Shown: positions 3,349-21,818, numbered from the stretch's first letter. The stretch: 53,665 nt of DNA from an uncultured Bacilli bacterium (GCA_934102055.1 CAKOSE010000004.1:1-53665), one strand, 5' to 3'. The notes: generated by a model from the sequence alone, not told the origin. Numbers and translations: made by a program.

Positions 3349-4164
3349 TTAAACTCCGAAAAAATACTCATATACAAAGAATCCACATGTAAGTAAGATT
3401 AGAATAATTACAATGATTATTGCTATTAAAAGACCTTTTCCTTCTTTTTGTTCGATAAAGTCACTAGACATGGAATCATCATTTTCTTCTTTGTTTTCTT
3501 TTTTTGCTTGTTCTTCTTTTTTTGTTTCTTTATCTTTTTTGGGTTCAATCTTAGTAGCAATTTCTTCTTGACTTGATGATTTTTCTTCTTCTTTATTTTC
3601 TTTTAACTCTTCTTTTTGATTATTTTTTGGGACTGGGTCATCATCATATAGCTCACTAAGCAGTCTATCTTCTTCTTTTTTTGAGTAAGTATCGGTTTTT
3701 GTAATTGGCCTTTCTTTTTCGTAAACATCATCAACTAAAGATTTGATATCTTCTTTTTTCATATCTTCGTTTTGGATGGATGCGAGATCTAGCTTAGTTA
3801 AGATATTATACTCAGTATTTATAAGACGTTTTTTTTCTTTTTCTTCGAAAAGTTTATTGTCTCTTGCAAGTTTTAGTATTTCGTCAATATCATATATTCT
3901 GTTTTCTTCAGGGATCGGGTCTTCAAAAATTTCTCTTTTCTTTTCTTTGTAAGATGGCATAATTCTATCTAGTTCTCTTTGTTTTTGATAGCTTTCTCTA
4001 GTTTTAGACTTATCGTAAGTTGATAAATCCATTGCGTTATCGACATTTATATCAACATAATCAATATTCATGTCTTGTATCTCGTTATATAATTTTTCGT
4101 TTCTTGTTGTTCTTCTTTTTACAGTTGGTGTGGTAACATCATATTTTTCCATTCTTGCTTTCAT
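3349..4164 (-). CDS. Hypothetical K/E-rich protein with a single C-terminal TM (tail-anchored topology)
   Basis: Long ORF. The start is moved to MKARMEKYD behind the RBS TAGGTGAT. The C-terminus LLIAIIIVIILILLTCGFFVY is hydrophobic. I recognise no family. Confidence 0.6.
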   Translation of the reverse strand: MKARMEKYDVTTPTVKRRTTRNEKLYNEIQDMNIDYVDINVDNAMDLSTYDKSKTRESYQKQRELDRIMPSYKEKKREIFEDPIPEENRIYDIDEILKLARDNKLFEEKEKKRLINTEYNILTKLDLASIQNEDMKKEDIKSLVDDVYEKERPITKTDTYSKKEEDRLLSELYDDDPVPKNNQKEELKENKEEEKSSSQEEIATKIEPKKDKETKKEEQAKKENKEENDDSMSSDFIEQKEGKGLLIAIIIVIILILLTCGFFVYEYFFGV

Positions 4165-4268
4165 AAAATCACCTATCATTACTATAAAAATTATAACATA
4201 AAAACATTAAAAAGAAAACCATTTTATTTTATAGATTTTTATTATATAATATTATCAGGAGGTAAATT

Positions 4269-4460
4269 ATGAAAGCAAAAGTTATAGATAATCTATGTAT
4301 TGGATGTGGTGCTTGTGCTGCTCTTGTTCCAGATGAATTTGACATTAATGAAAATGGTGTAGCATATGCTATAAATGATGAAGTAAATAAAGAAAATGAA
4401 GAACTTGTAAATGATGCTAAAGATAATTGTCCTACTAGTGCAATAAGCGTTACTGAATAG
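4269..4460 (+). CDS. fdx: Small 4Fe-4S ferredoxin
   Basis: CIGCGACAALVP plus a distal CP motif. RBS caggaggtaaattATG. Confidence 0.85.
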   Translation: MKAKVIDNLCIGCGACAALVPDEFDINENGVAYAINDEVNKENEELVNDAKDNCPTSAISVTE

Positions 4461-4473
4461 TTTTTCTAAAGTA

Positions 4474-4504
4474 AAAACATAAGATTAAATGCATCTTATG
4501 TTTT
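4474..4504. terminator. Bidirectional terminator between convergent fdx and tex
   Basis: Inverted repeat aaaacataagat / atcttatgtttt with a 7-nt loop, flanked by an A-run and a T-run. Confidence 0.7.
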
Positions 4505-4511
4505 ATTTTGT

Positions 4512-6656
4512 TTACATATCTTTTAAAGTAAGAGCAACTTTCTTTTTGTCTTTATTAATTTCTAGGACTTTACATTTTATTATGTCTCCGACAGATAGGA
4601 TATCGCTTGGATGTTTAACATAATTATTACTTAAATTAGAGATATGAATTAGGCCATCGTTTTTTAGTCCTATATCTACAAAAACTCCGAAGTCTATTAC
4701 GTTTCTTACTGTTCCTTCGAGGATCATTCCTTCTTTTAGATTATCTATTGTAAGAATATCACTTTTAAGTACTGGTTTTACAAGTTCATCTCTTGGATCT
4801 AGAATTGGTTTTTCTAATGATTTTATTATATCATCTAAGGTGTATTTATCTATGCTTAGTTTTTCTATTAGCATGTTTTTATCTACTTCTTTTAGTTTGT
4901 TTTTTAGGGTTTCTGTTCCTAGTTCGTCTAGGTTTGAGTTTATTATTTTAAGTAAGCTATATGTTTTTGAATAACTTTCTGGATGGATGCTTGTTTTATC
5001 GAGTGGATTATCTCCGTCATTTATTCTTATGAAGCCTATTGCTTGTTCATATATTTTATCGGATATTTTAGTTGCTTTTTTTAAGTCTTCTCTTGTTTTA
5101 TATTTTCCTTTTTCTTCACGTATTTTTAATATTTTATCAATTGTTTTGGAAGTTAGTCCTGATATATGTGATAGTATTTCTTTTGAGGCTGTGTTTATAT
5201 TTACTCCGACATTATTTACGACACTATCTACTGTAAAATCAAGGGCTTCGCTTAGTTCTTTTTGTTTTACGTCATGTTGATATAGTCCTACTCCGATTGA
5301 CTTTGGATCGATTTTAACAAGTTCTGATAAGGGATCTTGAAGTCTTCTTCCGATGGAGATAGCACTTCTTTCTGAGACATTTAGATTTGGAAATTCTTTT
5401 ATTGCTAGATTGGATGCTGAATAGACACTTGCTCCTGCTTCGTTTACTATTATGTATTTTGTATTTGTTCCTTTGATTAGATTGGATACAAATGCTTCAC
5501 TTTCTCTAGATGCTGTTCCGTTTCCTATTGCTATTACGTCGATATTATATTTATTTATTAAATCAAGAACATGTTTTTTACTTTTTTCTTTTTCGTTTTG
5601 AGGTTCATGTGGATAAATAACACTTATATCTAGAACATTACCTGTTTTATCTAGTACTGCTAATTTACATCCTGTTCTAAATGCTGGATCAAATCCTAAG
5701 ACGGTTATTTCTTTCATTGGTGGAGATAAGAGTAAACTTTTTAAGTTGCTTGAGAAATTTGATATAGAAACTTTACTTGCTACATCAGTTAGTTCACTTC
5801 TTATTTCTCGTTCTACTGAGGGAATTATTAGTCTTTTTAGGCTATCTTTTATAGAAAGTTCTACTAAAGGACATACTTTTGATTCTTTGTTTTTAATAAG
5901 TTTTGTTTTTAAATAGGATTCTAGTTTTTCTTGATTAAAATTTATTTTAACACTTAGTATTCCTTCTTTTTCTCCTCTGTTGATAGCTAGAACTCTATGG
6001 GGTTTAATGTGTTTTATGGATTCTTCATAGGAATAATACATTTCATAGACTTTATCTACATCTTCTTTGTCTTTTCCTTTTTTTAGTTTTGTTTCTATTA
6101 CTGCGTTTTTATAAATAAAGTTTCTTATATATTTTCTGTAGCTAGCGTTATCAGAGATATATTCTGATATTATATATGATGCTCCTTCTAGTTTTTTATC
6201 TATATCTTTAATTTTACAATCATATGTTTTTGCTATGTCTTCTGGGGTTTTGTTAAGAGGAAAAGAAAGTATTATTTTTGCTAAGCCTTCTAGACCACTT
6301 GCAATGGCAGCACTTGCTTTTGTTTTTTTCTTTTCTTTATATGGTCTATATAAATCTTCAACTTCTACTAGTTTAGTACAACTTAATATTTTTTGTCTTA
6401 GGTCTTCAGTCATTAGATCTTTTTCTTCGATTAATCTAATTACGTCTTCTTTTCTTTTCATGAGATTTACTTGATAGCTATAAACTGTTTCTATTTTTTT
6501 TATCTTGGTTTCATCTAATCCGTTAGTAGCTTCTTTTCTATATCTTGCTATAAAAGGAATAGTATTACCTTCTTCGAGTAGTTTTAATGTATTTTTTACT
6601 TGTTTTTCAGTAATGTTTTCCTCTTGGGATATTTGTTTTATTATTATATCATTCAT
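4512..6656 (-). CDS. tex: Transcription accessory protein Tex (S1 RNA-binding domain protein)
   Basis: N-terminal IPFIARYRKE motif, YqgF-like core, HhH region and C-terminal S1 domain (GTVRNVIDFGVFVDIG). The start is set at MNDIII behind AAAGGTGAT. The ORF-track start at 6701 is a TTG inside a terminator. Confidence 0.9.
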   Translation of the reverse strand: MNDIIIKQISQEENITEKQVKNTLKLLEEGNTIPFIARYRKEATNGLDETKIKKIETVYSYQVNLMKRKEDVIRLIEEKDLMTEDLRQKILSCTKLVEVEDLYRPYKEKKKTKASAAIASGLEGLAKIILSFPLNKTPEDIAKTYDCKIKDIDKKLEGASYIISEYISDNASYRKYIRNFIYKNAVIETKLKKGKDKEDVDKVYEMYYSYEESIKHIKPHRVLAINRGEKEGILSVKINFNQEKLESYLKTKLIKNKESKVCPLVELSIKDSLKRLIIPSVEREIRSELTDVASKVSISNFSSNLKSLLLSPPMKEITVLGFDPAFRTGCKLAVLDKTGNVLDISVIYPHEPQNEKEKSKKHVLDLINKYNIDVIAIGNGTASRESEAFVSNLIKGTNTKYIIVNEAGASVYSASNLAIKEFPNLNVSERSAISIGRRLQDPLSELVKIDPKSIGVGLYQHDVKQKELSEALDFTVDSVVNNVGVNINTASKEILSHISGLTSKTIDKILKIREEKGKYKTREDLKKATKISDKIYEQAIGFIRINDGDNPLDKTSIHPESYSKTYSLLKIINSNLDELGTETLKNKLKEVDKNMLIEKLSIDKYTLDDIIKSLEKPILDPRDELVKPVLKSDILTIDNLKEGMILEGTVRNVIDFGVFVDIGLKNDGLIHISNLSNNYVKHPSDILSVGDIIKCKVLEINKDKKKVALTLKDM

Positions 6657-6722: not shown

Positions 6723-7463
6723 TTATTTTTCTTTTATTTGTTTTGTTGTGCCATCTTGAAGAGTTAGTTTGTAGGTTGGATTTTCACATGTTTTTGATGA
6801 AGAATTACATATAACTTCTAAATCTTTCACTTTATAATCACTTAAAATTGTTTGTTTTTTCATATGATTTATTCCTGAGTCAGTTAACATATATTTAAAA
6901 ACTGTTCCGTCTTTTTTTATTATGAAAAATAGACTTATTGCATCAGATGGGTTATATATTGTTTTCACTACTACCTTGTTTAAATCTTCTTCTGATATAT
7001 TTAAATTTTTTGTTTTGTATCCCTCTCCTGATTTTGTTGGATTTGATGAGGCTGTAATGTTTTCAATACCTAAACATTCATCCGAACCTAATAAAGATGG
7101 TTCATTTACTGAAGATATATATAACTGTCCGTCATATGTGTAAATTAAGTAGCCATACCCTATCGCGTATATATGCATATCTTTTTCTCTATATGTGCTT
7201 ATTATATAGTTTTTTTCATTTGTCTCTGATGTTTTCTGAGTATCTTCTGCCTTGATTTCGTTTAATTTATCATTTGCTTCTTTCTTTTCTCTGTTTGCTA
7301 TTTCTAAGTCATCTCTTGCTACTTCTAGATTTGTTTTGGTGTTTTTATCTAGTACTAGTTTGTCATATGCTGTGTATGCTCCTAATCCTAGTAACAATAC
7401 TATTAGAATTATTATTGTTACTGTTTTTCCTGTGCTTTTTGGTTTTTCTTGGTTTTCTTCCAT
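6723..7463 (-). CDS. N-terminally membrane-anchored extracytoplasmic protein, unknown function
   Basis: RBS AAAAGGAGTGAAAGTATG. One TM (VTIIILIVLLLGLGAYTAY), a coiled-coil-like stretch, then a beta-rich domain. No known family. Confidence 0.7.
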   Translation of the reverse strand: MEENQEKPKSTGKTVTIIILIVLLLGLGAYTAYDKLVLDKNTKTNLEVARDDLEIANREKKEANDKLNEIKAEDTQKTSETNEKNYIISTYREKDMHIYAIGYGYLIYTYDGQLYISSVNEPSLLGSDECLGIENITASSNPTKSGEGYKTKNLNISEEDLNKVVVKTIYNPSDAISLFFIIKKDGTVFKYMLTDSGINHMKKQTILSDYKVKDLEVICNSSSKTCENPTYKLTLQDGTTKQIKEK

Positions 7464-7542: not shown

Positions 7543-8184
7543 TTAGTTTTCTTTTGCTATGTTATTTATTATTTTATTTCCATCTGTGGTAAGGCTATAT
7601 TTTGTCTTTGTATTAGTGTTTGTATCATTTTTATAATATTTATAATTTGTTCCATCAAATTCAACTTCATCTTCTTCTAGTGGATTATCTATTGTTATTT
7701 CATTTTTTAGTTTTTTTGTGTCATTATATATGGTCATTTTATAGATTTTTTCTGGGGAGATTTCTCTTAGAAATCCTAAGTATTTTCCTTTAAATATATA
7801 TAACTTGGCATTGAAATTAGTTAGTACTGAACTATTTTGTAAAACTCCTCCGGATAAGGTGTCTACTTCTTTTCCATCTATATATAATGTATAGTTTACT
7901 TCTTTTTGATCTGTTATTGTGTAATATTTAATTTTTATTTTGTGATTTTTGTTTTTATATGCGACTTCTATTTCTTTTGTGCAAGAATTGTTATCTATAA
8001 CGCAAGAAGTTCCCTTTAAATCAAATATGTTCCCTTCGACTAATATATTTGAAAAGGAATTATCTTTAACAACTTCTGGTAAAGTACTTTTAAAGAATTT
8101 ATCATAAACTATATAGCTAATGGATGATATAAATAAAATAAGTAATACTATTATAATTATTGTTTTTTTGTCTTTATTTTTCAT
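7543..8184 (-). CDS. N-terminally membrane-anchored extracytoplasmic protein, unknown function
   Basis: RBS AAGAAGGTGTAGTATG. One TM (IIIIVLLILFISSISYIVY) followed by a beta-rich domain. The anchor region resembles that of the neighbouring 6723-7463 gene. Confidence 0.7.
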   Translation of the reverse strand: MKNKDKKTIIIIVLLILFISSISYIVYDKFFKSTLPEVVKDNSFSNILVEGNIFDLKGTSCVIDNNSCTKEIEVAYKNKNHKIKIKYYTITDQKEVNYTLYIDGKEVDTLSGGVLQNSSVLTNFNAKLYIFKGKYLGFLREISPEKIYKMTIYNDTKKLKNEITIDNPLEEDEVEFDGTNYKYYKNDTNTNTKTKYSLTTDGNKIINNIAKEN

Positions 8185-8308: not shown

Positions 8309-8385
8309 TGGTAGCGACGGAGGGGATCGAACCCCCGACCTTCCGGGTATGAACCGGACGCTCTAGCCAGCTGAGCTACATCGCC
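8309..8385 (-). tRNA. tRNA-Met (anticodon CAT), elongator type, CCA encoded
   Basis: The reverse complement GGCGATGTAGCTCAGCTGGCTAGAGCGTCCGGTTCATACCCGGAAGGTCGGGGGTTCGATCCCCTCCGTCGCTACCA folds as a cloverleaf. The anticodon stem TCCGG/CCGGA carries the loop TTCATAC, and a T-arm GGTTCGATCC is present. It closely resembles Bacillus elongator tRNA-Met. Confidence 0.9.
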
Positions 8386-8449: not shown

Positions 8450-9424
8450 TTAGCTTAATGTGCGTTTTTTTATATCATTTGAGGTTGAAAATTTATCTAT
8501 TGTGGCTTTTCTATCTATTAGAATGGCTCTTACTATATCAAGAGATATATTATTTTCTTTGTAATCTCTTTTGTAAGACTTGCTTTTTGTATATTTCATG
8601 GTATCGTTGTAAGCTTTAAGGACGCTTATATCGTCTATTAAATGAAGTAAAGCTTCTAGATAACTTTTATGTTTTATGACTTCTAAGTAAGAATATGGGT
8701 CATTGTAATTATAATCTTTAACTTTTAGGATAGATAGTATTTCTTGATTGATTTGTTGTTTTAGAATATCTTCTTTTAAATCGCTAAGATCTTCTTCATC
8801 AATAAATAGAAAATTACTAAGTTCTTCATCTGTTAAATAATTAAAACTATTGCTAGTTAAATATTTCATATCTAAGAAATTTTCTTCACTTATTTTATAT
8901 TTTGTCCTTATTATATAATTTCTAACATCTTCTCGTGTATTTTCAGTAAGTAAATCATTTAGTATATAGATAGTGCTTAGATTTTTTTCTTCATTTAGTA
9001 TAGTAGATAAACTTTCCCTTTGAAAAAGAGAAAGTCCTATTACTCTTAGTTTATCTCTTGTTGTTTCATAACCGTTTACTTCTAAAGATATTTCATCTAT
9101 ATTATCTAATATTTCATTTGCTTGTTCTTCTATATATTTTTGGTTTATCTTTTTATCTAACTGATTAATAACTCTTTTTAATGGAAAGTCTTTTAAGGAT
9201 TCTTTTGTTATTAAATAGTCTAGTGTTGAAAGATCATTGTCATTATAGATGCTAAATTCTTTACCTACTAGTTCTTTTAATTTTAATACTTCTTTTTTAT
9301 ACTCATTGCTGTCTTTTTTGTTGTTTACTTCTAATTTGCATAACATGTTATATGTCTCATTTATTTGTTTTGTGACTTCGATTAAACTTGTTTTAAAGTT
9401 TAGTAATTTTTTTTCATTGCTCAT
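8450..9424 (-). CDS. Hypothetical cytoplasmic, predominantly helical protein
   Basis: Long ORF. The start MSNEKK follows the RBS GGGGGA. No TM segment and no recognisable motif. Confidence 0.6.
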   Translation of the reverse strand: MSNEKKLLNFKTSLIEVTKQINETYNMLCKLEVNNKKDSNEYKKEVLKLKELVGKEFSIYNDNDLSTLDYLITKESLKDFPLKRVINQLDKKINQKYIEEQANEILDNIDEISLEVNGYETTRDKLRVIGLSLFQRESLSTILNEEKNLSTIYILNDLLTENTREDVRNYIIRTKYKISEENFLDMKYLTSNSFNYLTDEELSNFLFIDEEDLSDLKEDILKQQINQEILSILKVKDYNYNDPYSYLEVIKHKSYLEALLHLIDDISVLKAYNDTMKYTKSKSYKRDYKENNISLDIVRAILIDRKATIDKFSTSNDIKKRTLS

Positions 9425-9499
9425 GTCTAATTCCCCCATGGATAGATTTTATCATTTTTTTATGGATTAGTCAAAAAAATAAGTCTTCTTTTAGACTTA

Positions 9500-13392: not shown

Positions 13393-14538
13393 CTAGTCCT
13401 CTTCTTCTATATTCTTCAAATCTTCCTCTTTAGAGATATCTTCATAAGTTTTGAAAAAAACTTCTATATACATTTTACCATTTTTAATATACTTTTTCAA
13501 AGTTTTTTGTTTAATTATATATTCATCTTTTTCTAAAGTATCTAAAATATCTTTTTTAGCACGGACTTCTAATATTTTTTTTAGATTATTACTGGTATAT
13601 TTTTTAGACTTGGTTGTGTATTTTTTTTCTTGTTTTATATTTATACTTAATAAATCGTTTTTAAAGATATTACTTGTTTTATTACTTTGTATTTTTTTCC
13701 TTAGTTTAAATAAGATTATTTCTTTGTTATTGGTATTTAAAACAAGGCTTAGATTTCCTTTTTCTTTTGGGACTAGTTCTTTGTGATTTAAACTATCGTT
13801 TACTTTTACTATATACCAAACTTCTGCATAGACTTTTCCACTTGCTCTTACTTTAGAGACAATGTTTTCGTTTCTTATTATGTTTCCGCTTATAATAACA
13901 TCGCCTTTTTTTACGTAGTCATAAGTGTTTTTTTGAACTTGACCGCGTCTTGATTCAATTTTTCTTATATAACCACTTTTTTCTGCGACTATATCTTTAT
14001 AATCATTTTTATCATTTTTTATGTGATCAATTCTTTCTATTACTTTAACATTTAATAGAACTCCTTTTTGATCTAGTTCAATCCATTCTATTTTATCTTT
14101 GTTATTGTTTTTGATATTAAGACTAATTGTATTTAGGGATTTATAGTCTTTTTTTAAAGAATAAAGAGTAATTTTTTCTTTTTCTAAGTTATTAGAAATT
14201 GTTTGTTTTAAGGAATCACTATTGGTATCTATATTTATAAATAAAGTAAAATGAGAAATAAAGCATAGAAAAAAAACACTAATAATAAAAGTAATTAGAG
14301 ATATTTTGTATTTTTTCAAATTCATTAAGTACTTTTTCTTACCACATGTCTTTATTATATTTATTTGATAAGTTGTCTTTATTTTTTTTATTTTTTGATA
14401 ATCGCTATAGGATATTTTTATAAGGATGTTATTTTTTTGATATTTAATATCTAGTATATTTATATCTAGTTTAAGTATTTGTGTTAAGAATTTTCTTGTG
14501 TTTTTACCTTTTATCTCAGCCCAAAAATAATTAATCAT
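13393..14538 (-). CDS. yqfD: Sporulation protein YqfD (stage IV)
   Basis: About 380 aa with one central TM. It lies immediately downstream of yqfC, in conserved synteny with the ybeY-era cluster. Confidence 0.7.
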   Translation of the reverse strand: MINYFWAEIKGKNTRKFLTQILKLDINILDIKYQKNNILIKISYSDYQKIKKIKTTYQINIIKTCGKKKYLMNLKKYKISLITFIISVFFLCFISHFTLFINIDTNSDSLKQTISNNLEKEKITLYSLKKDYKSLNTISLNIKNNNKDKIEWIELDQKGVLLNVKVIERIDHIKNDKNDYKDIVAEKSGYIRKIESRRGQVQKNTYDYVKKGDVIISGNIIRNENIVSKVRASGKVYAEVWYIVKVNDSLNHKELVPKEKGNLSLVLNTNNKEIILFKLRKKIQSNKTSNIFKNDLLSINIKQEKKYTTKSKKYTSNNLKKILEVRAKKDILDTLEKDEYIIKQKTLKKYIKNGKMYIEVFFKTYEDISKEEDLKNIEEED

Positions 14539-14546
14539 TTTATCAC

Positions 14547-14777
14547 CTAAAATTCAATAGTTTTTATTTTGCCCAGAATCATTATTTCATGATTTTCTAG
14601 TTTTGTTACTCTTAAATCATTGCCTTTTATGTTTATGTAGCCGTTGCTAGTATTTATAAGAATTCTATCATCTTCGAAGACTAAAACTTCTTTAAATGAT
14701 TTTATACTTAGTTTTCCGTCTTCTAGTATGACTCTAAAATTGTTATCATAAACGATATCTCTTAGTTCTTTAAACAT
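14547..14777 (-). CDS. yqfC: Sporulation protein YqfC
   Basis: A 76-aa protein with the ILINTSNGYINIKGNDLRV and ILGKIKTIEF pattern typical of YqfC. Confidence 0.7.
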   Translation of the reverse strand: MFKELRDIVYDNNFRVILEDGKLSIKSFKEVLVFEDDRILINTSNGYINIKGNDLRVTKLENHEIMILGKIKTIEF

Positions 14778-14812
14778 AAACTCTCCTTTATTAAAAAGTA
14801 TGTTTACTATAC

Positions 14813-14838
14813 AAAAAAAAGACTAGCTTATGCTAATC
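14813..14838 (-). terminator. Rho-independent terminator closing the bacteriocin locus
   Basis: On the minus strand: GAUUAGC-AUAA-GCUAGUC (one G-U pair) followed by UUUUUUUU, directly after the stop of the small hydrophobic ORF. Confidence 0.65.
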
Positions 14839-14991
14839 TTATATACAGTTTGAAATTTCTCTTAGATAAGAGCCGAATGCTATTCCTAGAATATTTATGA
14901 AATATAATACTTTTATAACGATTGGTAATGAAATGACTGTAAAAACTATTTTTAACGCTTTTTTCTTGTTTAATCTCTTGATAAAGTGCAT
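14839..14991 (-). CDS. Candidate bacteriocin immunity protein (50 aa, hydrophobic), absent from the ORF track
   Basis: MHFIKRLNKKKALKIVFTVISLPIVIKVLYFINILGIAFGSYLREISNCI has a basic N-terminus and a hydrophobic core. The ATG overlaps the last 22 nt of peptide B, and the ORF ends right at the terminator. The SD (GAAGAA) is weak. Confidence 0.35.
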   Translation of the reverse strand: MHFIKRLNKKKALKIVFTVISLPIVIKVLYFINILGIAFGSYLREISNCI

Positions 14992-15173
14992 AATTTTTTT
15001 CTTCTTATTCTACGTATAGCAGAACCAAATTCTTGTCCGAAACCATATAGAACCTTAAAAGCTGAAGTGAAGGCGTTTATGACTGAGCCTGAAAACTTTG
15101 CTCCACCGATTACTTCTTTGGATTCTTCTATGGTTAATTTATTTACGACATTTGATTGGTCTAACATAACCAT
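14970..15173 (-). CDS. Double-glycine-leader bacteriocin precursor B (67 aa, predicted 43-aa cationic mature peptide)
   Basis: The leader MVMLDQSNVVNKLTIEESKEVIGG fits the GG-leader consensus (L-12, E-8, V-4, GG). The predicted mature peptide is AKFSGSVINAFTSAFKVLYGFGQEFGSAIRRIRRKKLCTLSRD. An AGGAG SD lies 6 nt upstream of the ATG at 15173. The gene is adjacent to the C39-ABC exporter. Confidence 0.7.
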   Translation of the reverse strand: MVMLDQSNVVNKLTIEESKEVIGGAKFSGSVINAFTSAFKVLYGFGQEFGSAIRRIRRKKLCTLSRD

Positions 15174-15276
15174 CAAGTGCTCCTATTCCAAAAATTATAC
15201 CTGCTATTCCTCCGAGTATTGCCCAAAGAGATACTCCACCTTCTATGTTTTTTAATTCTTTATCGCTTAACTTCAT
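15139..15276 (-). CDS. Double-glycine-leader bacteriocin precursor A (45 aa, predicted 31-aa hydrophobic GxxxG-rich mature peptide), absent from the ORF track
   Basis: MKLSDKELKNIEGG matches the LSxxELxxIxGG consensus exactly. The predicted mature peptide is VSLWAILGGIAGIIFGIGALDGYVRPIKCRK. The SD AAGGGGGA lies 9 nt upstream. The ATG lies 17 nt inside the 3' end of the ABC gene, and the 3' end overlaps the start of peptide B. Confidence 0.7.
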   Translation of the reverse strand: MKLSDKELKNIEGGVSLWAILGGIAGIIFGIGALDGYVRPIKCRK

Positions 15277-17314
15277 ATACTGTACCATCCCCCTTAAAAT
15301 TATACTTTTTAGTAAATAGATCTTTATTACTATTTCTATGTGATATTATTATTATTATTTTATCGTTATGTTTATTTATTATATTTTTTAATATTTTTCT
15401 CTCTTCTGAGATAGAAATTTCATTAAATACTTCATCCAAGATAAGTACATTTTTTAAATGTAATAGTCCTCTTGCTAGAATTATTTTTTTTCGTTCTCCC
15501 CCACTTAGATTCATACCATCTTCTTCTAAGAAGTAGTTAAGATTTGTTTTGTTTTTAGATAAGAATTCATTTAGTAAAGAAAGTTTACATACTTCATTTA
15601 TTTTATTTTTATCACTTGTTACTAGTTTGAAATTATCTAGTATAGTGCCTTGAAATAGTTCTTCGTTTTGACTTATGTATGTAATATTATTTCTGATAAA
15701 AGATAAATCTAAGTCTTTATGATTTATATTATCTATTAGGATTTTTCCTTCTTTTTGTGAGTAATACTTTAATAATAACTTCATCATGGTTGATTTTCCT
15801 ATTCCAGATTGTCCAGTTAAATAGATTCTTTCTCCTTTGTTGAAGTTACAGTTTATGTTATTTAGAATAACTTTATTATCGTTTTCGTATGTAACATTTT
15901 CGAATACAATACTTTTTATTTCAGAGTAGTTTGTTTTGTTAAACTTTTCTGGTTGCACTTCTAGAAGATCGAGTACTCTATCGGTAGAGGTTTGATATAC
16001 TTTATGAAGTACTATACTTTCCATTATGTTATCTAAAAGTCCCATGGTTAAATAAAAGAAACTTGAAAACAATATAATATCAAATAATTCCATTTTTAAT
16101 ATATGCATTATAAATATTGAAATAAAGATAAGCAAAACATAAAACGTATCTTCTAGTGAAGAAATAATAAAATTATAGACTGCATTAGTCTTGTTATATA
16201 TTTTGTTTTGAGTTAAAACATCTGTATATTTTTGGTTTAAGTTATTTGATATTTTTTTACTTATGTTTAAGTTTTTTATGGTTTCAAATGCTTTTATATT
16301 AGAAATAAGTAAGGATGTATAACTTATTTTATGGGTCTTATATTTAACAAATGAATCGTTTAGTTTGTATTGATAATTTTTTGTTATTATAAGTATTATT
16401 ACTACCATTAAGAAAAGAAATAGACCAACATAAATGTTTAGAAAACAAGTATAAATGATTACTACAAGTATAAGAATTAAATCTACTAGTGATAATATAA
16501 AAACTTTTGTTACTATTTCTTTAAAGATTTCTATATCTTCTACTACTGTCATTAATTCTCCAGACTGTTTTTGGATGAAGTACTTGTAAGGAAGATTTAG
16601 AATATGATTTATGACTTTGTTTGTTATATCTTTGTCTATTTTTGAGTTAAGTTTTATCATTAACCTATCTTTTATATAAGTTAAAATATTTTTAAAAAGA
16701 GCAAGTGATAAATATATAATACATATAATCAATAATAGATTAATTTTTTTATTATAAGTTAATACTAGTTTTAAATAATAATTAAAAATTAAAGATAAGA
16801 TAACTGTTACAACTGATAATATTACTGTCTTTGTGATGCTTTTTTTATTTGATTTTATTATTTTTAATATATGCTGTTTTAAAGGCTTTTCTTTTTTTGT
16901 TTTATTGTTTTTATTAAATAATAAAAAGATATTTGTGCTTATTTCATTGAATTCATCATAAGAAATTATTTTGATTCCATCTTCTGGATCCATCACTTTT
17001 AAGAGTTTTTTCTTTTTATCTTGTGCTAGTATAACTATAAAGTGAAACATATTTTTTCCTTTTATAGTATGAGCGATAGCGGGTAATTTTGAAAGATTAT
17101 TTATATCGGTTTTTATACCATAACTATCTATTCCATACGATTTACTTACTTTTATTAAATCATATGCTGTATAACCTCCATGTTTTTTATTCATATTACT
17201 TATTATTTTTTCCCTAGAGGGTTTTATTTTATAATACATGAGAATGGTCATTATACTTGCTACTGCACAATCATTATTATTAAGTTGTAACACATAGTCA
17301 TAATTTTTATTCAT
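15260..17314 (-). CDS. Bacteriocin-processing ABC transporter with N-terminal C39 peptidase domain
   Basis: C39 catalytic motif LNNNDCAVASIMTIL plus HFIVIL/DP. Six-TM domain. Walker A GQSGIGKST, signature LSGGERKK, Walker B ILILDE. RBS GAGGAGGATAAAATG. Confidence 0.9.
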   Translation of the reverse strand: MNKNYDYVLQLNNNDCAVASIMTILMYYKIKPSREKIISNMNKKHGGYTAYDLIKVSKSYGIDSYGIKTDINNLSKLPAIAHTIKGKNMFHFIVILAQDKKKKLLKVMDPEDGIKIISYDEFNEISTNIFLLFNKNNKTKKEKPLKQHILKIIKSNKKSITKTVILSVVTVILSLIFNYYLKLVLTYNKKINLLLIICIIYLSLALFKNILTYIKDRLMIKLNSKIDKDITNKVINHILNLPYKYFIQKQSGELMTVVEDIEIFKEIVTKVFILSLVDLILILVVIIYTCFLNIYVGLFLFLMVVIILIITKNYQYKLNDSFVKYKTHKISYTSLLISNIKAFETIKNLNISKKISNNLNQKYTDVLTQNKIYNKTNAVYNFIISSLEDTFYVLLIFISIFIMHILKMELFDIILFSSFFYLTMGLLDNIMESIVLHKVYQTSTDRVLDLLEVQPEKFNKTNYSEIKSIVFENVTYENDNKVILNNINCNFNKGERIYLTGQSGIGKSTMMKLLLKYYSQKEGKILIDNINHKDLDLSFIRNNITYISQNEELFQGTILDNFKLVTSDKNKINEVCKLSLLNEFLSKNKTNLNYFLEEDGMNLSGGERKKIILARGLLHLKNVLILDEVFNEISISEERKILKNIINKHNDKIIIIISHRNSNKDLFTKKYNFKGDGTVYEVKR

Positions 17315-17382
17315 TTTATCCTCCTCATATATATAATTACCAACAAGGAAGACTTTTTCCTTAATTTTTTGATAAAAAAGTT

Positions 17383-17416
17383 AAAAAAATAAAAAGATAA
17401 GTTTTAATCGCTTATC
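17383..17416 (-). terminator. Terminator of dnaE
   Basis: Stem GATAAG (last dnaE codons) / CTTATC, followed on the minus strand by TTTTTATTTTTTT. Confidence 0.55.
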
Positions 17417-20310
17417 TTAATTACTTCGTTACATATGATTTGGTATTCATTAAGTCTTCTTTCGACTTTTCCATTTACTTTAATTATTTCGTTTTTCTTT
17501 AGATTGTTTAATTGTTTGTATAGTTCGGGGAACATGACTAAAGTTGTATCTCCTGTATTGTCTGATGTTGTTACAAAGCACATAACTTCGTTTTTCTTGG
17601 TTATGATTTCTTTCTTTTTATCTATCATGACAATAACGCTTATTTTTTTGTTTAGATAGTTTTTTATATCTTTTATATCTGTTATATTGGTGTTGTTTAA
17701 TTTATATTTTTCAGTTTTATGACTAGTTAAATAAAAACCAAATACTTCTTTTTCTTTGTTTAGGATTTCTTCTTCTGGTAGTTCTGGTTTTAGTTCTATT
17801 TCTGGTTTTGCTAATGCACTATCGTCTAGTCCTATTGAAAGTTCTACGTAGTTTAAGATGTTATCTAAATTAGATATTAAGGTGTTTATGTTATAGAAAT
17901 TATCAAAGACGTGGGCATATATTAGGGATTCAAGTATTTTTCTATTGTTTGTTTTTGGATAAGTTCTTTTTAGGAAGTCATATATATCTTTATAAGGGGT
18001 ATTTCTTTTTTCTACGATATAATTTGATATAATACTACCGACATTTCTTATTCCTCCGAAGGGATATATAATTGTGTTTTCTTTGAATGTGAATTTATCT
18101 TCTTTGCTTAAATTTATATCTGGTGCTAGGACTTTGATACCTAGTTTTTTTACTTCGTTTAGGTATTCTTTTGTTTTTTCTTCACTTCCTATGACGCTTG
18201 ATAATAAATTGGCATAGAATTCTTTTGGAAAGTAGTATTTTAAATAGGCCATTTTATATGCTACTATGGAATAGGAAACTGAATGACTTTTGTTAAAACC
18301 ATATCCTGCGAAGGCAAGTATTAGATCGAATAGTTCTTTGGCTTTTTCTTTTGTTTTATTGTTTTTTAGGGATTTTTCTATGAATTTTTCTTCTTCTCCT
18401 TTTAAGATATCGTACTTTTTCTTACTCATTGCACGTCTTAAGAGATCGGCTTCTGCTAAGGTGTATCCTGCATATTTTCTTGCAATTAACATGATTTGTT
18501 CTTGATAGACTATTATTCCATATGTTTCTTCTAGTATTTCTTTTAAGTCATTATCTAAATATGTTATCTTTTCTTTACCTTCTTTTCTTTTTATGAAGGA
18601 TGGGATGTTTTTAGCAGGACCTGGTCTAAAGAGTGCTATGGCATTACAAAGATCTATGAAACTATCTGGTTTTAAATCTTTTAGAAATCTTCTCATACCA
18701 TCTGATTCGAACTGGAATATACCAGTAGTTTCTCCTTTTTTAAATAAATCAATTACGTTTTTGTCATCTAGGGGAATTTTGTTGATGTCTAGTTTTTTTC
18801 CTACGTTTGCTTCTATATCTTTTATGACGTTATCTATTATAGATAGGTTTTTTATTCCTAAGAAGTCCATTTTTATAAGTCCCAGTTCTTCTAGGTAGTC
18901 CATGGTATATTCAGTTAGGTTTATTTCATCGCTTTGTTTTATTGGTAAGACTTCGTAAAGTGGTTTATAACTTATGACAATACCTGCGGCATGGATACTT
19001 GTATGTCTTTTATTACCTTCGATTAAGTTTACTATATTATATAAAAGTTTTAGTTTATCATCGTTTTCAATCATTGTGTTTACTTCTTTATCACTGTGTT
19101 TAAGCTCTTTTAAAGTGCCTTTGAATGGTATTTTTTTGCAGATTATATCTATATACCGAGGTGAGATGTTTAGAACTCTTCCAACGTCTCTTACTGAGGC
19201 TCTTCCTCCGAGGGTTCCAAAAGTAATAATACCTGCGACGTTATCTTTTCCATATTTTTCTTTTACGTATTCTATGACTTGTCCTCTTTTTGTATCGGGG
19301 AAATCTGTATCTATATCGGGCATTGTTACTCTTTCGGGATTTAGGAATCTTTCGAATAAAAGGTTATATTTTATGGGATCTACATCTGTAATTCCTAAAC
19401 AGTATGAAACAAGGGAACCTGCGGCTGAACCTCTTCCTGGGCCTACTAAGATATTGTTTTGTTTTGCATATTTTATATAGTCATATACTACTAAAAAATA
19501 ATCTTCAAAATGCATTTTTAATATAATATCAAGTTCATATTTTAGTCTTTCGAGATAGGTTTTGTTTACATTACCATTTAATCTTCTTATAAGACCTTTT
19601 TTACTAAGATTACATAGAAATTCTTTAGAGTTAGGGACATCATACTTAGGCATGAATAGTTCTTTTTTAAAGGAATAGTTACACATATTGGCTATTTTAT
19701 TAGTATTTGCAATGGACTTATTGCTAACTCTTGAAAGGGCTTCTTCGTAAGTAAATAAGTAATTGTCTTGATAGATAAATTCTATTTTATCGCTGATTGT
19801 TTTTCCATCTCTTATCATAAAGATATAGGGTAAGTATTTATATAGGGCTTTTTCTAAATATAGGGTTTTGTTTATGAAGACGGTATTATATTCTTTGTAT
19901 TTATCTTCTTCTATTTTATTAGAGACTCCTATAAAGATATCATAAAAGTAAGGATTATATTCGTTATAGGTATCTATATCAAAGCAAATAAGAATTAGGT
20001 CTTTGGATAGTTTTATTATATCTTCTTTGGATAGGTTTTCTTTGTTTTTTAGGGTTTCTATTTTTACTAAGTTATAATAACCTTCACTAGTTTTTGCTAG
20101 TAAGATATATTTGTTAAGATCGAGTCCTATTAAGGGTTTTATACCGGCTTTTTTAAATTTGTGAGTAACTTCCATAGTGCCATATAGGTTATCATCCACT
20201 ATAGCACATGAGGAAATGTTTTTTTTCTTTAAATTATCTATTAAATCGTCTATTTTGATTAGACTTGATAATAAACTATAATCGGTTTTTATGTAAAGTG
20301 GTGTGTACAT
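17404..20310 (-). CDS. dnaE: DNA polymerase III alpha subunit, DnaE type
   Basis: N-terminal PHP domain, the FLNPERVTMPDIDTDF palm motif, GYGFNKSHS, an HhH region and a C-terminal OB fold. 968 aa. Confidence 0.9.
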   Translation of the reverse strand: MYTPLYIKTDYSLLSSLIKIDDLIDNLKKKNISSCAIVDDNLYGTMEVTHKFKKAGIKPLIGLDLNKYILLAKTSEGYYNLVKIETLKNKENLSKEDIIKLSKDLILICFDIDTYNEYNPYFYDIFIGVSNKIEEDKYKEYNTVFINKTLYLEKALYKYLPYIFMIRDGKTISDKIEFIYQDNYLFTYEEALSRVSNKSIANTNKIANMCNYSFKKELFMPKYDVPNSKEFLCNLSKKGLIRRLNGNVNKTYLERLKYELDIILKMHFEDYFLVVYDYIKYAKQNNILVGPGRGSAAGSLVSYCLGITDVDPIKYNLLFERFLNPERVTMPDIDTDFPDTKRGQVIEYVKEKYGKDNVAGIITFGTLGGRASVRDVGRVLNISPRYIDIICKKIPFKGTLKELKHSDKEVNTMIENDDKLKLLYNIVNLIEGNKRHTSIHAAGIVISYKPLYEVLPIKQSDEINLTEYTMDYLEELGLIKMDFLGIKNLSIIDNVIKDIEANVGKKLDINKIPLDDKNVIDLFKKGETTGIFQFESDGMRRFLKDLKPDSFIDLCNAIALFRPGPAKNIPSFIKRKEGKEKITYLDNDLKEILEETYGIIVYQEQIMLIARKYAGYTLAEADLLRRAMSKKKYDILKGEEEKFIEKSLKNNKTKEKAKELFDLILAFAGYGFNKSHSVSYSIVAYKMAYLKYYFPKEFYANLLSSVIGSEEKTKEYLNEVKKLGIKVLAPDINLSKEDKFTFKENTIIYPFGGIRNVGSIISNYIVEKRNTPYKDIYDFLKRTYPKTNNRKILESLIYAHVFDNFYNINTLISNLDNILNYVELSIGLDDSALAKPEIELKPELPEEEILNKEKEVFGFYLTSHKTEKYKLNNTNITDIKDIKNYLNKKISVIVMIDKKKEIITKKNEVMCFVTTSDNTGDTTLVMFPELYKQLNNLKKNEIIKVNGKVERRLNEYQIICNEVIKISD

Positions 20311-21224: not shown

Positions 21225-21818
21225 TTATATTTGTAATGATTTTAGAACTAGTTCATAGGCTTTTTTTACATCGATTTCATTTGATATATTAAGACCATAT
21301 GATTTTAGTTCTTTAATCATTGTTTTCTTTTCTTCTAAAATTTCTTCGTTTGATTTTTCTTCAAAATCATTTAAGTTTTCGTATTCTAATAATAGACCTA
21401 AGTTATTTACGTTTTGAAAGGCAAATTCTAAATTGTTTTTTTTCATGACTAGAACATCATATTTTACTTCGGTTAATTTTTCAAACTTTAATGCTTGGAA
21501 TAGTTTATATGCTATATTCAGATCTTCACAGTTTAAATTTATTTTTTCTTCTGAAATAACTTGATTATCATCGTATACTTTGTTTTTATATGTTATTTTT
21601 TTTATGACTTGTTCGTCATTAATTTTTAAATATCTTAAAAGAACACATGAAGATAAGATTTCAATAATATTTTTCTTGTTTAGGTCTTTCTTTTTTTGAG
21701 TTAAATAGATATCTTTTACTTTACTTTCTCTTACTTTTTTAAAGCCATGTTTTTCTAGTTTTTTGATTGCTTCTTCTAGTGTTTCATTTACTCTTGTGGT
21801 TATTTCTATTTGTTTCAT
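21225..21818 (-). CDS. Hypothetical protein, possibly a degenerate CYTH-like domain
   Basis: 197-aa ORF opening QIEITTRV, which resembles the CYTH ExExK beta-strand but is degenerate. The assignment is weak. Confidence 0.35.
   Translation of the reverse strand: MKQIEITTRVNETLEEAIKKLEKHGFKKVRESKVKDIYLTQKKKDLNKKNIIEILSSCVLLRYLKINDEQVIKKITYKNKVYDDNQVISEEKINLNCEDLNIAYKLFQALKFEKLTEVKYDVLVMKKNNLEFAFQNVNNLGLLLEYENLNDFEEKSNEEILEEKKTMIKELKSYGLNISNEIDVKKAYELVLKSLQI

Follow-up and report, generated by a model that had tools for sequence, protein, structure and literature searches.

The locus described here raises the question whether a 45-codon reading frame that begins inside the 3' end of a gene for a C39-type ABC exporter is a gene in its own right and, if so, whether its product is one subunit of a two-peptide bacteriocin. 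The DNA is a stretch of 53,665 nucleotides from an uncultured Bacilli bacterium (CAKOSE010000004.1 of GCA_934102055.1), which is referred to as the window. An initial annotation had described on it a 45-aa peptide with a double-glycine (GG) leader, hereafter peptide A, together with a partner, peptide B. The translation of peptide A, MKLSDKELKNIEGGVSLWAILGGIAGIIFGIGALDGYVRPIKCRK (reverse complement ATG AAG TTA AGC ... CGT AAA TAA), was reproduced exactly at 15276..15139; the coordinates were correct, and the strand, which had been left unstated, is the minus strand. Peptide A is part of a cassette of overlapping genes, together with the exporter gene, peptide B and a small ORF named ORF3, and this cassette displays the following features:

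17320..17326, minus: Shine-Dalgarno sequence GAGGAGG of the ABC gene, 5 nt before the start codon, read from the sequence
15260..17314, minus: ABC exporter, 684 aa, with C39 peptidase, ABC transmembrane domain and ATPase
15288..15295, minus: Shine-Dalgarno sequence AAGGGGGA of peptide A, formed by the ABC tail codons K-G-D
15276..15139, minus: peptide A ORF, 45 codons, ATG at 15276..15274, stop codon TAA at 15141..15139
15235..15276, minus: peptide A leader MKLSDKELKNIEGG, 14 aa, its first 17 nt shared with the ABC gene
15139..15234, minus: predicted mature peptide A VSLWAILGGIAGIIFGIGALDGYVRPIKCRK, a 31-mer, plus stop codon
15180..15184, minus: Shine-Dalgarno sequence AGGAG of peptide B, 6 nt before the ATG at 15173, within peptide A codons I31-G32-A33
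14970..15173, minus: peptide B precursor, 67 aa, its first 35 nt overlapping peptide A
14839..14991, minus: ORF3, 50 aa, with a 22-nt overlap with peptide B
14809..14840, minus: intrinsic terminator-like hairpin (9 pairs, 4-nt loop, T run), directly after ORF3

Reading frame, family and selection of peptide A

As had been described, the ATG of peptide A lies 17 nt inside the ABC gene, whose TAA stop codon is found at 15262..15260, and the Shine-Dalgarno sequence is contained in the ABC coding sequence; within the close clade the same overlap of start and stop is maintained. The spacing of 11-12 nt between Shine-Dalgarno sequence and ATG is at the long end of normal. The Shine-Dalgarno sequence is conserved in four related loci (L001, L002, L003 and L027), of which L001, L002 and L027 have the same long spacing, and L003 possesses an additional GGAGGAG located 6 nt from the ATG. 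An in-frame ATG four codons earlier, at 15288 (MVQY...), is the start of the 49-aa database entry P0001. This longer reading was rejected, its ATG being located within the Shine-Dalgarno sequence; the 45-aa reading is the better one because the ATG at 15288 is missing in L002 and L003, and because most aligned family members start at, or at most one residue from, the MKL/MRL position. The peptide had been termed unannotated, which is right for the 60-aa ORF filter of the first stage, but public gene calls do include it, both in L027-L031 and as P0001. A word-indexed search, with 26 matches for peptide A against 283 for peptide B, had suggested that peptide A systematically escapes gene callers; this was rejected in view of the calls in L027-L031 and of the 284 clusters recovered by the exhaustive search described below.

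The leader of peptide A fits the consensus LSxxELxxIxGG at every position, in agreement with the initial annotation, and its double-glycine type is corroborated by a score of 18.8 bits on the NCBIfam leader model TIGR01847 (cut-off 15.7). The mature 31-mer (VSLW...CRK) has a GRAVY value of 0.97, a net charge of +3 and a computed monoisotopic mass of 3255.868 Da. Where three or four GxxxG motifs had been announced, three are present (starting at G8, G12 and G18) but not a fourth, and among these only G18xxxG22 is conserved in the family. AlphaFold predicts for the precursor a helix at residues 17-38 (mean pLDDT 72).

The initial assignment of peptide A to the class IIb bacteriocins is borne out by NCBIfam TIGR03949, the lactobin A/cerein 7B family, which peptide A matches with 30.8 bits (E 1.8e-07, cut-off 21.5), with residues 2-37 aligned on profile positions 3-45 of 45, and which is also matched by 19 of the 24 peptide A relatives. 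With this family peptide A has in common the GG leader, the glycine-rich hydrophobic GxxxG helix and the basic C-terminal tail, whereas its own clade is short and uniform (precursors of 44-50 aa) and is distinguished by the signature F29-x-x-G32-x-x-x-G36-x-x-x-P40-x-x-C43 (precursor numbering) with a single conserved Cys. On Pfam PF10439 (Bacteriocin_IIc) peptide A stays under the gathering threshold (14.8 bits, E 0.029, against 27.1), and on NF038035 and NF038034 it scores 16.7 and 14.5 bits against a cut-off of 37, these sub-cut-off matches covering the leader and the first mature residues only.

A profile search, which had been proposed as a check, was run exhaustively against 1.84 billion representatives (E ≤ 0.001) and yielded 284 representative clusters for peptide A, almost all of 44-50 aa and matched end to end. 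Motifs were counted over the 162 members not longer than 60 aa: a GG-type site is found in 161, a GxxxG motif in 157, a Cys within the last nine residues in 156, and exactly one Cys in the mature part in 147 of them, the exceptions being visibly truncated or frameshifted. In five metagenomic copies (P0003, P0024, P0026, P0192 and P0279) the similarity breaks off right behind the leader or halfway along the helix, and the C-terminal Cys is lost; these are either copies in decay or products of frameshifted assembly. Among the search matches of peptides A and B there is no named or characterised member. A search of solved structures with both peptides recovered leader-level similarity only (E above 0.1 throughout), the matches being the precursor of carnobacteriocin B2 and CtA, the substrate of PCAT1, and tblastn of both peptides against 72,556 plasmids gave no match.

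Given that the frame is short, and that AT-rich genomes are rich in spurious small ORFs (dozens are listed nearby), peptide A could in principle be a chance, untranslated ORF in an intergenic or overlap region. Against this, the 28 codons free of either overlap give dN/dS ratios of 0.25-0.33 in comparisons of the window with L002 and L003, and this is so in the peptide A frame only: frame +1 contains two to six stop codons, and in frame +2 the ratios for the same pairs rise to 2.4-5.7. For peptide B the ratios are 0.16-0.35, and the alternative frames of both peptides contain stops or give ratios mostly about 1 or more. The 284 clusters, with their uniform length and conserved GG, G32 and Cys, the conserved place beside a C39 exporter and the score above the TIGR03949 cut-off speak in the same direction. 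A six-frame scan of the 53.7-kb window for the leader-like pattern gave three matches, namely peptide A, the adjacent peptide B and a third inside a longer ORF. Because the pattern is matched only three times in the window, and because the frame is conserved and selected across loci, peptide A is not regarded as a chance ORF. On these comparisons the probability of the chance reading is negligible, conservation having effectively refuted it, and the peptide A ORF is a real gene under purifying selection.

Peptide B, the exporter and ORF3

The partner named in the initial annotation does adjoin peptide A and does carry a GG leader. Peptide B is composed of a leader of 24 aa ending in VIGG, MVMLDQSNVVNKLTIEESKEVIGG (22 aa if read from the second ATG), followed by a 43-aa mature part, AKFSGSVINAFTSAFKVLYGFGQEFGSAIRRIRRKKLCTLSRD. 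Its ATG is made from the peptide A codons gAT Ggt (D35-G36), and the GGAG core in front of it is kept with equal spacing in five close-clade loci. The mature peptide (AKFS...SRD, computed monoisotopic mass 4824.613 Da) is amphipathic, with a net charge of +7, a GRAVY value of -0.08, one GxxxG motif (residue 22) and a cationic tail. A profile search retrieved 283 relatives, in which GG, N33, G46xxxG50, R54 and C62 are invariant, and the mature part gave no match to curated families. The AlphaFold model of peptide B displays a helix at residues 29-65 (pLDDT 61.5); for both peptides a helix is thus predicted through the GxxxG region, with moderate to low confidence.

Natural A-B fusion proteins were considered as a sign of joint function and were rejected, as both examples are gene-calling artefacts: in P0113 (101 aa) a TGA stop codon was read as Trp (L026, 915..940), and in P0152 (102 aa) a TAG stop codon was read as Gln (L048, 238..265). 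The window itself uses genetic code 11, with TGA as the stop codon of 4 of its 29 long ORFs and TGG for all 43 Trp codons (43/43).

The exporter gene that had been claimed next to peptide A encodes all three expected domains (Pfam PF03412 Peptidase_C39, PF00664 ABC_membrane and PF00005 ABC_tran, all above gathering), ends in GDGTVYEVKR-TAA, and has kept the catalytic Q/C/H/D motifs. These C39 motifs are Q10..C16, MFHF at 89 and MDPEDG at 108, and those of the ATPase are Walker A at 501, LSGG at 603, Walker B at 624 and ISHR (H-loop) at 657. The best solved relatives are PCAT1 of Clostridium thermocellum (4ry2, E 2.4e-63), followed by ComA of Streptococcus (8hf7, E about 1e-60), with which the exporter has the three-domain architecture in common and aligns over its full length, catalytic and ATPase motifs included; it differs from them in being divergent, in having LSGGE instead of LSGGQ, and in an unusual LILDEVFNEIS after Walker B. 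The exporter scores 254.6 bits on TIGR01193, below the cut-off of 523.85, and is also below the TIGR03796 cut-off. Judged by its architecture and motifs, it is a PCAT despite the sub-cut-off TIGR01193 score.

ORF3 has a basic N-terminus and one hydrophobic span, and this basic membrane protein is probably the immunity protein. Its relatives come after peptide B in every locus for which sequence is available there, with a motif LG-x-x-x-G-x-(F/Y)-L-R in five aligned loci and a looser LGRY-x-G-T in the most distant ones; searches of Pfam and NCBIfam, including the known immunity families, gave no match. In all eight loci examined (the window, L001-L004, L022, L025 and L027) the ORF3 start codon, at 14989..14991 in the window, is built on the codon of the invariant Cys of peptide B, in the contexts ttA TGc, atA TGc and gtA TGt, or atG TGt (a GTG start) in L025, and no Shine-Dalgarno sequence precedes ORF3 in any of the eight. 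Two coding constraints therefore act on the Cys of peptide B. In five of five public contigs examined (L027-L031, the P0030 loci; 4183..4338 in L027) peptides A and B are called and ORF3 is not, so that among the cassette genes it is ORF3 that truly escapes annotation.

The terminator-like hairpin after ORF3, its stem-loop at 14840..14819 with the T run beyond, is the only such site in 14500..17700. A promoter scan gave matches at a rate not exceeding that in shuffled sequence, and the 89-nt gap that precedes the ABC gene contained none. A weak AT-rich hairpin at 17383..17416 (minus; GATAAG, 9-nt loop, CTTATC, T-rich run) overlaps the dnaE stop codon and may to some extent shield the cassette from transcription coming from dnaE. 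Rfam and tRNA scans of the window gave only a tRNA-Met (8309..8385), which is unrelated.

Conservation and chromosomal setting of the cassette

Related loci were obtained via the ABC protein and, independently, via the neighbouring yqfD. Peptide A is followed directly by peptide B in 11 of 11 independent related loci, and ORF3 is present as well in ten of these, the contig of the eleventh (L026) ending just after peptide B. Peptide A directly follows the ABC gene in eight loci (L001, L002, L003, L026, L027, L032, L033 and L034) with ABC identities of 55-97% to the window (L032 97%, L001 96%, L033 64%, L002 60%, L003 and L034 55%). The initial annotation had stated that absence of the ORF from relatives with the same ABC gene would speak against it; the ORF was found in every ABC-bearing related locus. 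In the three most divergent ones (L004, L022 and L025, ABC identity 33-35%) a single ORF, whose product of 137-161 aa has a hydrophobic N-terminal segment, lies between the ABC gene and peptide A (L004 3695..4180, L022 4435..4848, L025 4422..4850). This ORF has no Pfam match, is absent from the clade of the window, and may encode a novel accessory protein.

The cassette is flanked on one side by dnaE, an SPFH protein, rpe, rsgA, a PASTA kinase, a PP2C and rlmN, and on the other side by yqfC/YabP, yqfD, VanZ, ybeY, dgkA, cdd, era, recO and Tex. Over about 10 kb the neighbours serve housekeeping or sporulation, apart from a few ORFs without Pfam match, and no histidine kinase, response regulator, inducer peptide or accessory gene was found there. 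This bears on the suggestion that the peptides are secreted signals, i.e. pheromones of the ComC/BlpC type processed by the same kind of exporter. A GG leader and a C39 ABC exporter also occur in pheromone systems, ComA ranks second among the solved relatives of the exporter, and one peptide A relative and one peptide B relative weakly match the EntF induction factor and ComC, respectively. These weak matches, however, come from single members and cover leaders that are common to bacteriocins, the mature peptides of 31 and 43 aa are one membrane-helix-like and the other amphipathic, with GxxxG motifs, and a two-component system is lacking within about 10 kb on either side. Signalling peptides are therefore considered very improbable.

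Five ORFs of the window that have no Pfam match (E ≤ 0.001) encode 197-329 aa on the minus strand (3349..4179, 6723..7463, 7543..8184, 8450..9439 and 21225..21818), the 329-aa product of 8450..9439 being rich in Asn, Lys and Glu. In L027-L031, at about 4340..5300, a variable insertion is found between ORF3 and yqfC, which the window does not have; it encodes HTH_Rpn_C proteins of 59 to 290 aa in one or two copies, and in L030 no gene is called within the region.

The neighbourhood yqfC-yqfD-VanZ-ybeY-cdd-era surrounds the cassette even in the distant L022 and L025, the cassette is present in three of three yqfD-anchored loci of 46-96% YqfD identity, and its divergence follows that of its flank, with ABC/YqfD identities to the window of 96/94% (L001), 60/57% (L002), 33/31% (L022) and 34/33% (L025). 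It was not found in L037, L039 and L041 (YqfD identity ~35%, several kb of upstream sequence present), and in L003 and L004 it is located at other chromosomal positions. A cassette that diverges in step with its flanking genes points to long vertical retention within the clade. Bacteriocin loci are more often strain-variable. Vertical retention is unusual for toxin loci and says nothing direct about function.

A stable place on the core chromosome beside yqfC/yqfD, with no dedicated regulator within about 10 kb, would also suit a system peculiar to the lineage and directed at the producer's own population, either as sporulation-linked sibling killing or as a kin signal, and the constant neighbourhood and the parallel divergence of ABC and YqfD favour such a role. 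The adjoining sporulation genes, on the other hand, constitute no functional link, and between the cassette and yqfC there is a terminator-like site; moreover, the cassette is not confined to this site (L003, L004), is not found in the three loci of ~35% YqfD identity, and encodes peptides that resemble ordinary membrane-active bacteriocins. A role of this kind is accordingly judged improbable, though less so than a pheromone.

The family pair occurs in metagenome-assembled genomes (MAGs) titled 'uncultured Bacilli bacterium' or 'bacterium', with a locus G+C content of 24-30%. The MAG of L001 (CAVFIB010000010.1) is titled 'Bacteroidaceae bacterium', while all other relatives are Bacilli; its proteins are 94-100% identical to those of the window from dnaE over the ABC gene and the peptides to yqfC and yqfD, and the title is probably a binning or labelling error.

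Class IIb assignment, proposed mechanism and significance

Class IIb systems have been described as consisting of two adjacent genes for GG-leader preforms, an immunity gene in the same operon and a dedicated ABC exporter that cleaves the leaders; the peptides are cationic, their leaders usually count 15-30 residues, and their GxxxG motifs mediate helix-helix packing in the target membrane (PMC2850506). In the window, the genes for peptides A and B overlap by 35 nt on one strand; both precursors have GG leaders, that of A being one residue under the usual range and that of B 24 or 22 aa long; a gene with C39, ABC_membrane and ABC_tran domains, predicted to cleave these leaders, lies immediately upstream; and both mature peptides are cationic and contain GxxxG (three motifs and +3 in A, one and +7 in B), with one GxxxG per peptide invariant or nearly so in the two families. 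Because this arrangement corresponds to the class IIb description (PMC2850506), peptide A is taken as the alpha-like subunit: we consider it likely that its ORF is the alpha-like subunit gene of a two-peptide bacteriocin, made in amounts linked to those of its partner through overlapping, coupled genes. Several features count against this reading, namely the 14-aa leader of A and the spacing of 11-12 nt between its Shine-Dalgarno sequence and ATG, the lack of an accessory protein in the window and of a regulator within about 10 kb, the sub-cut-off TIGR01193 score of the exporter, an ORF3 without Shine-Dalgarno sequence or likeness to known immunity proteins, a mature peptide B outside the described bacteriocin families, the apparently vertical inheritance of the cassette at a fixed housekeeping site, and structure models of moderate to low confidence.

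Adjacent peptide genes accompanied by an immunity gene are also found in the lactococcin G and enterocin 1071 loci, where ORF3 would be the counterpart candidate; lactococcin G has its ABC exporter in the same operon, as would be the case for the window cassette if it is co-transcribed, and each cationic peptide of the two systems contains one functionally critical GxxxG, a likeness to A and B (PMC2850506). The window cassette differs from both in its sub-cut-off NF038035/NF038034 scores, in lacking an accessory protein, and in its genes overlapping by 17 (ABC/A), 35 (A/B) and 22 nt (B/ORF3). The carnobacteriocin XY immunity protein CbnZ has 42 residues and a single TMD and is encoded in the same cluster as the structural genes (PMC6957408). 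By analogy it is an experimental precedent for an immunity protein as small as the putative one, ORF3, both proteins being very small, with one hydrophobic span or TMD, and encoded in the gene cluster of the peptides; ORF3 differs in having no similarity to any curated family. Since GG-leader precursors have been mined by the thousands from gut genomes (PMC12648112), the existence of such a locus is in itself unsurprising: the kind of system is well known, and it is the family pair for which the matches include no named or characterised member.

In the mechanism that we propose, the ABC exporter, peptide A, peptide B and ORF3 would be transcribed as one unit ending at the hairpin 14840..14809, and the two peptides would be made in linked amounts because each downstream gene begins within the 3' end of the preceding one. 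The C39 domain of the exporter would recognise the GG leaders and cut after GG, and the exporter would secrete a hydrophobic 31-aa peptide (+3) and an amphipathic 43-aa peptide (+7). On the target membrane G18xxxG22 of A and G22xxxG26 of B (mature numbering) would pack helix to helix, and the packed pair would make the membrane leaky, probably via a membrane-protein receptor, while ORF3, the 50-aa membrane protein, would protect the producer.

Peptides A and B might instead be independent one-peptide bacteriocins (class IId-like) with a common exporter and immunity gene, A killing alone and B serving as an enhancer or as a toxin of its own. Synergy cannot be read from a sequence, the two peptides differ in character (GRAVY 0.97 against -0.08), and a named class IIb family is matched by A only; yet the adjacency and order of A and B hold at all loci examined, including those of 33-35% ABC identity, both share a single candidate immunity gene, and each peptide has exactly one conserved GxxxG and one conserved Cys, as would fit a paired function. 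We consider independent action unlikely, if somewhat less so than a role within the producer's own population, and retain the two-peptide reading.

The conserved C-terminal cysteines, one in each peptide (Cys29 of mature A and Cys38 of mature B), offer a further, speculative possibility, to which we give a small chance: an inter-peptide disulfide would yield a covalent heterodimeric bacteriocin, with a computed A-S-S-B mass of 8078.465 Da. The conservation of the peptide B Cys is confounded because its codon doubles as the start codon of ORF3. Single functional cysteines are known in other class II bacteriocins, e.g. lactococcin B. Among the papers searched, none described a covalently (disulfide-) linked two-peptide bacteriocin. 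If such a bond is formed, activity could depend on redox state, and the cassette would represent a covalently linked two-peptide variant, kept for long on the chromosome of uncultured spore-forming gut Bacilli by vertical inheritance.

For annotation, the locus illustrates that very small overlapping genes can be missed, as was ORF3, and that wrong genetic-code calls yield false 'fusion' proteins such as P0113 and P0152. The minimal four-gene overlapping cassette should be easy to synthesise and test. For the two-peptide bacteriocins, the present finding adds a sizeable uncharacterised pair, with at least 284 clusters for peptide A and at least 283 relatives for peptide B, hosted by uncultured, low-GC, spore-forming gut Bacilli, and the one Cys per peptide and the fixed chromosomal position pose questions about covalent or redox-dependent pairing and about the stable inheritance of a toxin locus in these organisms.
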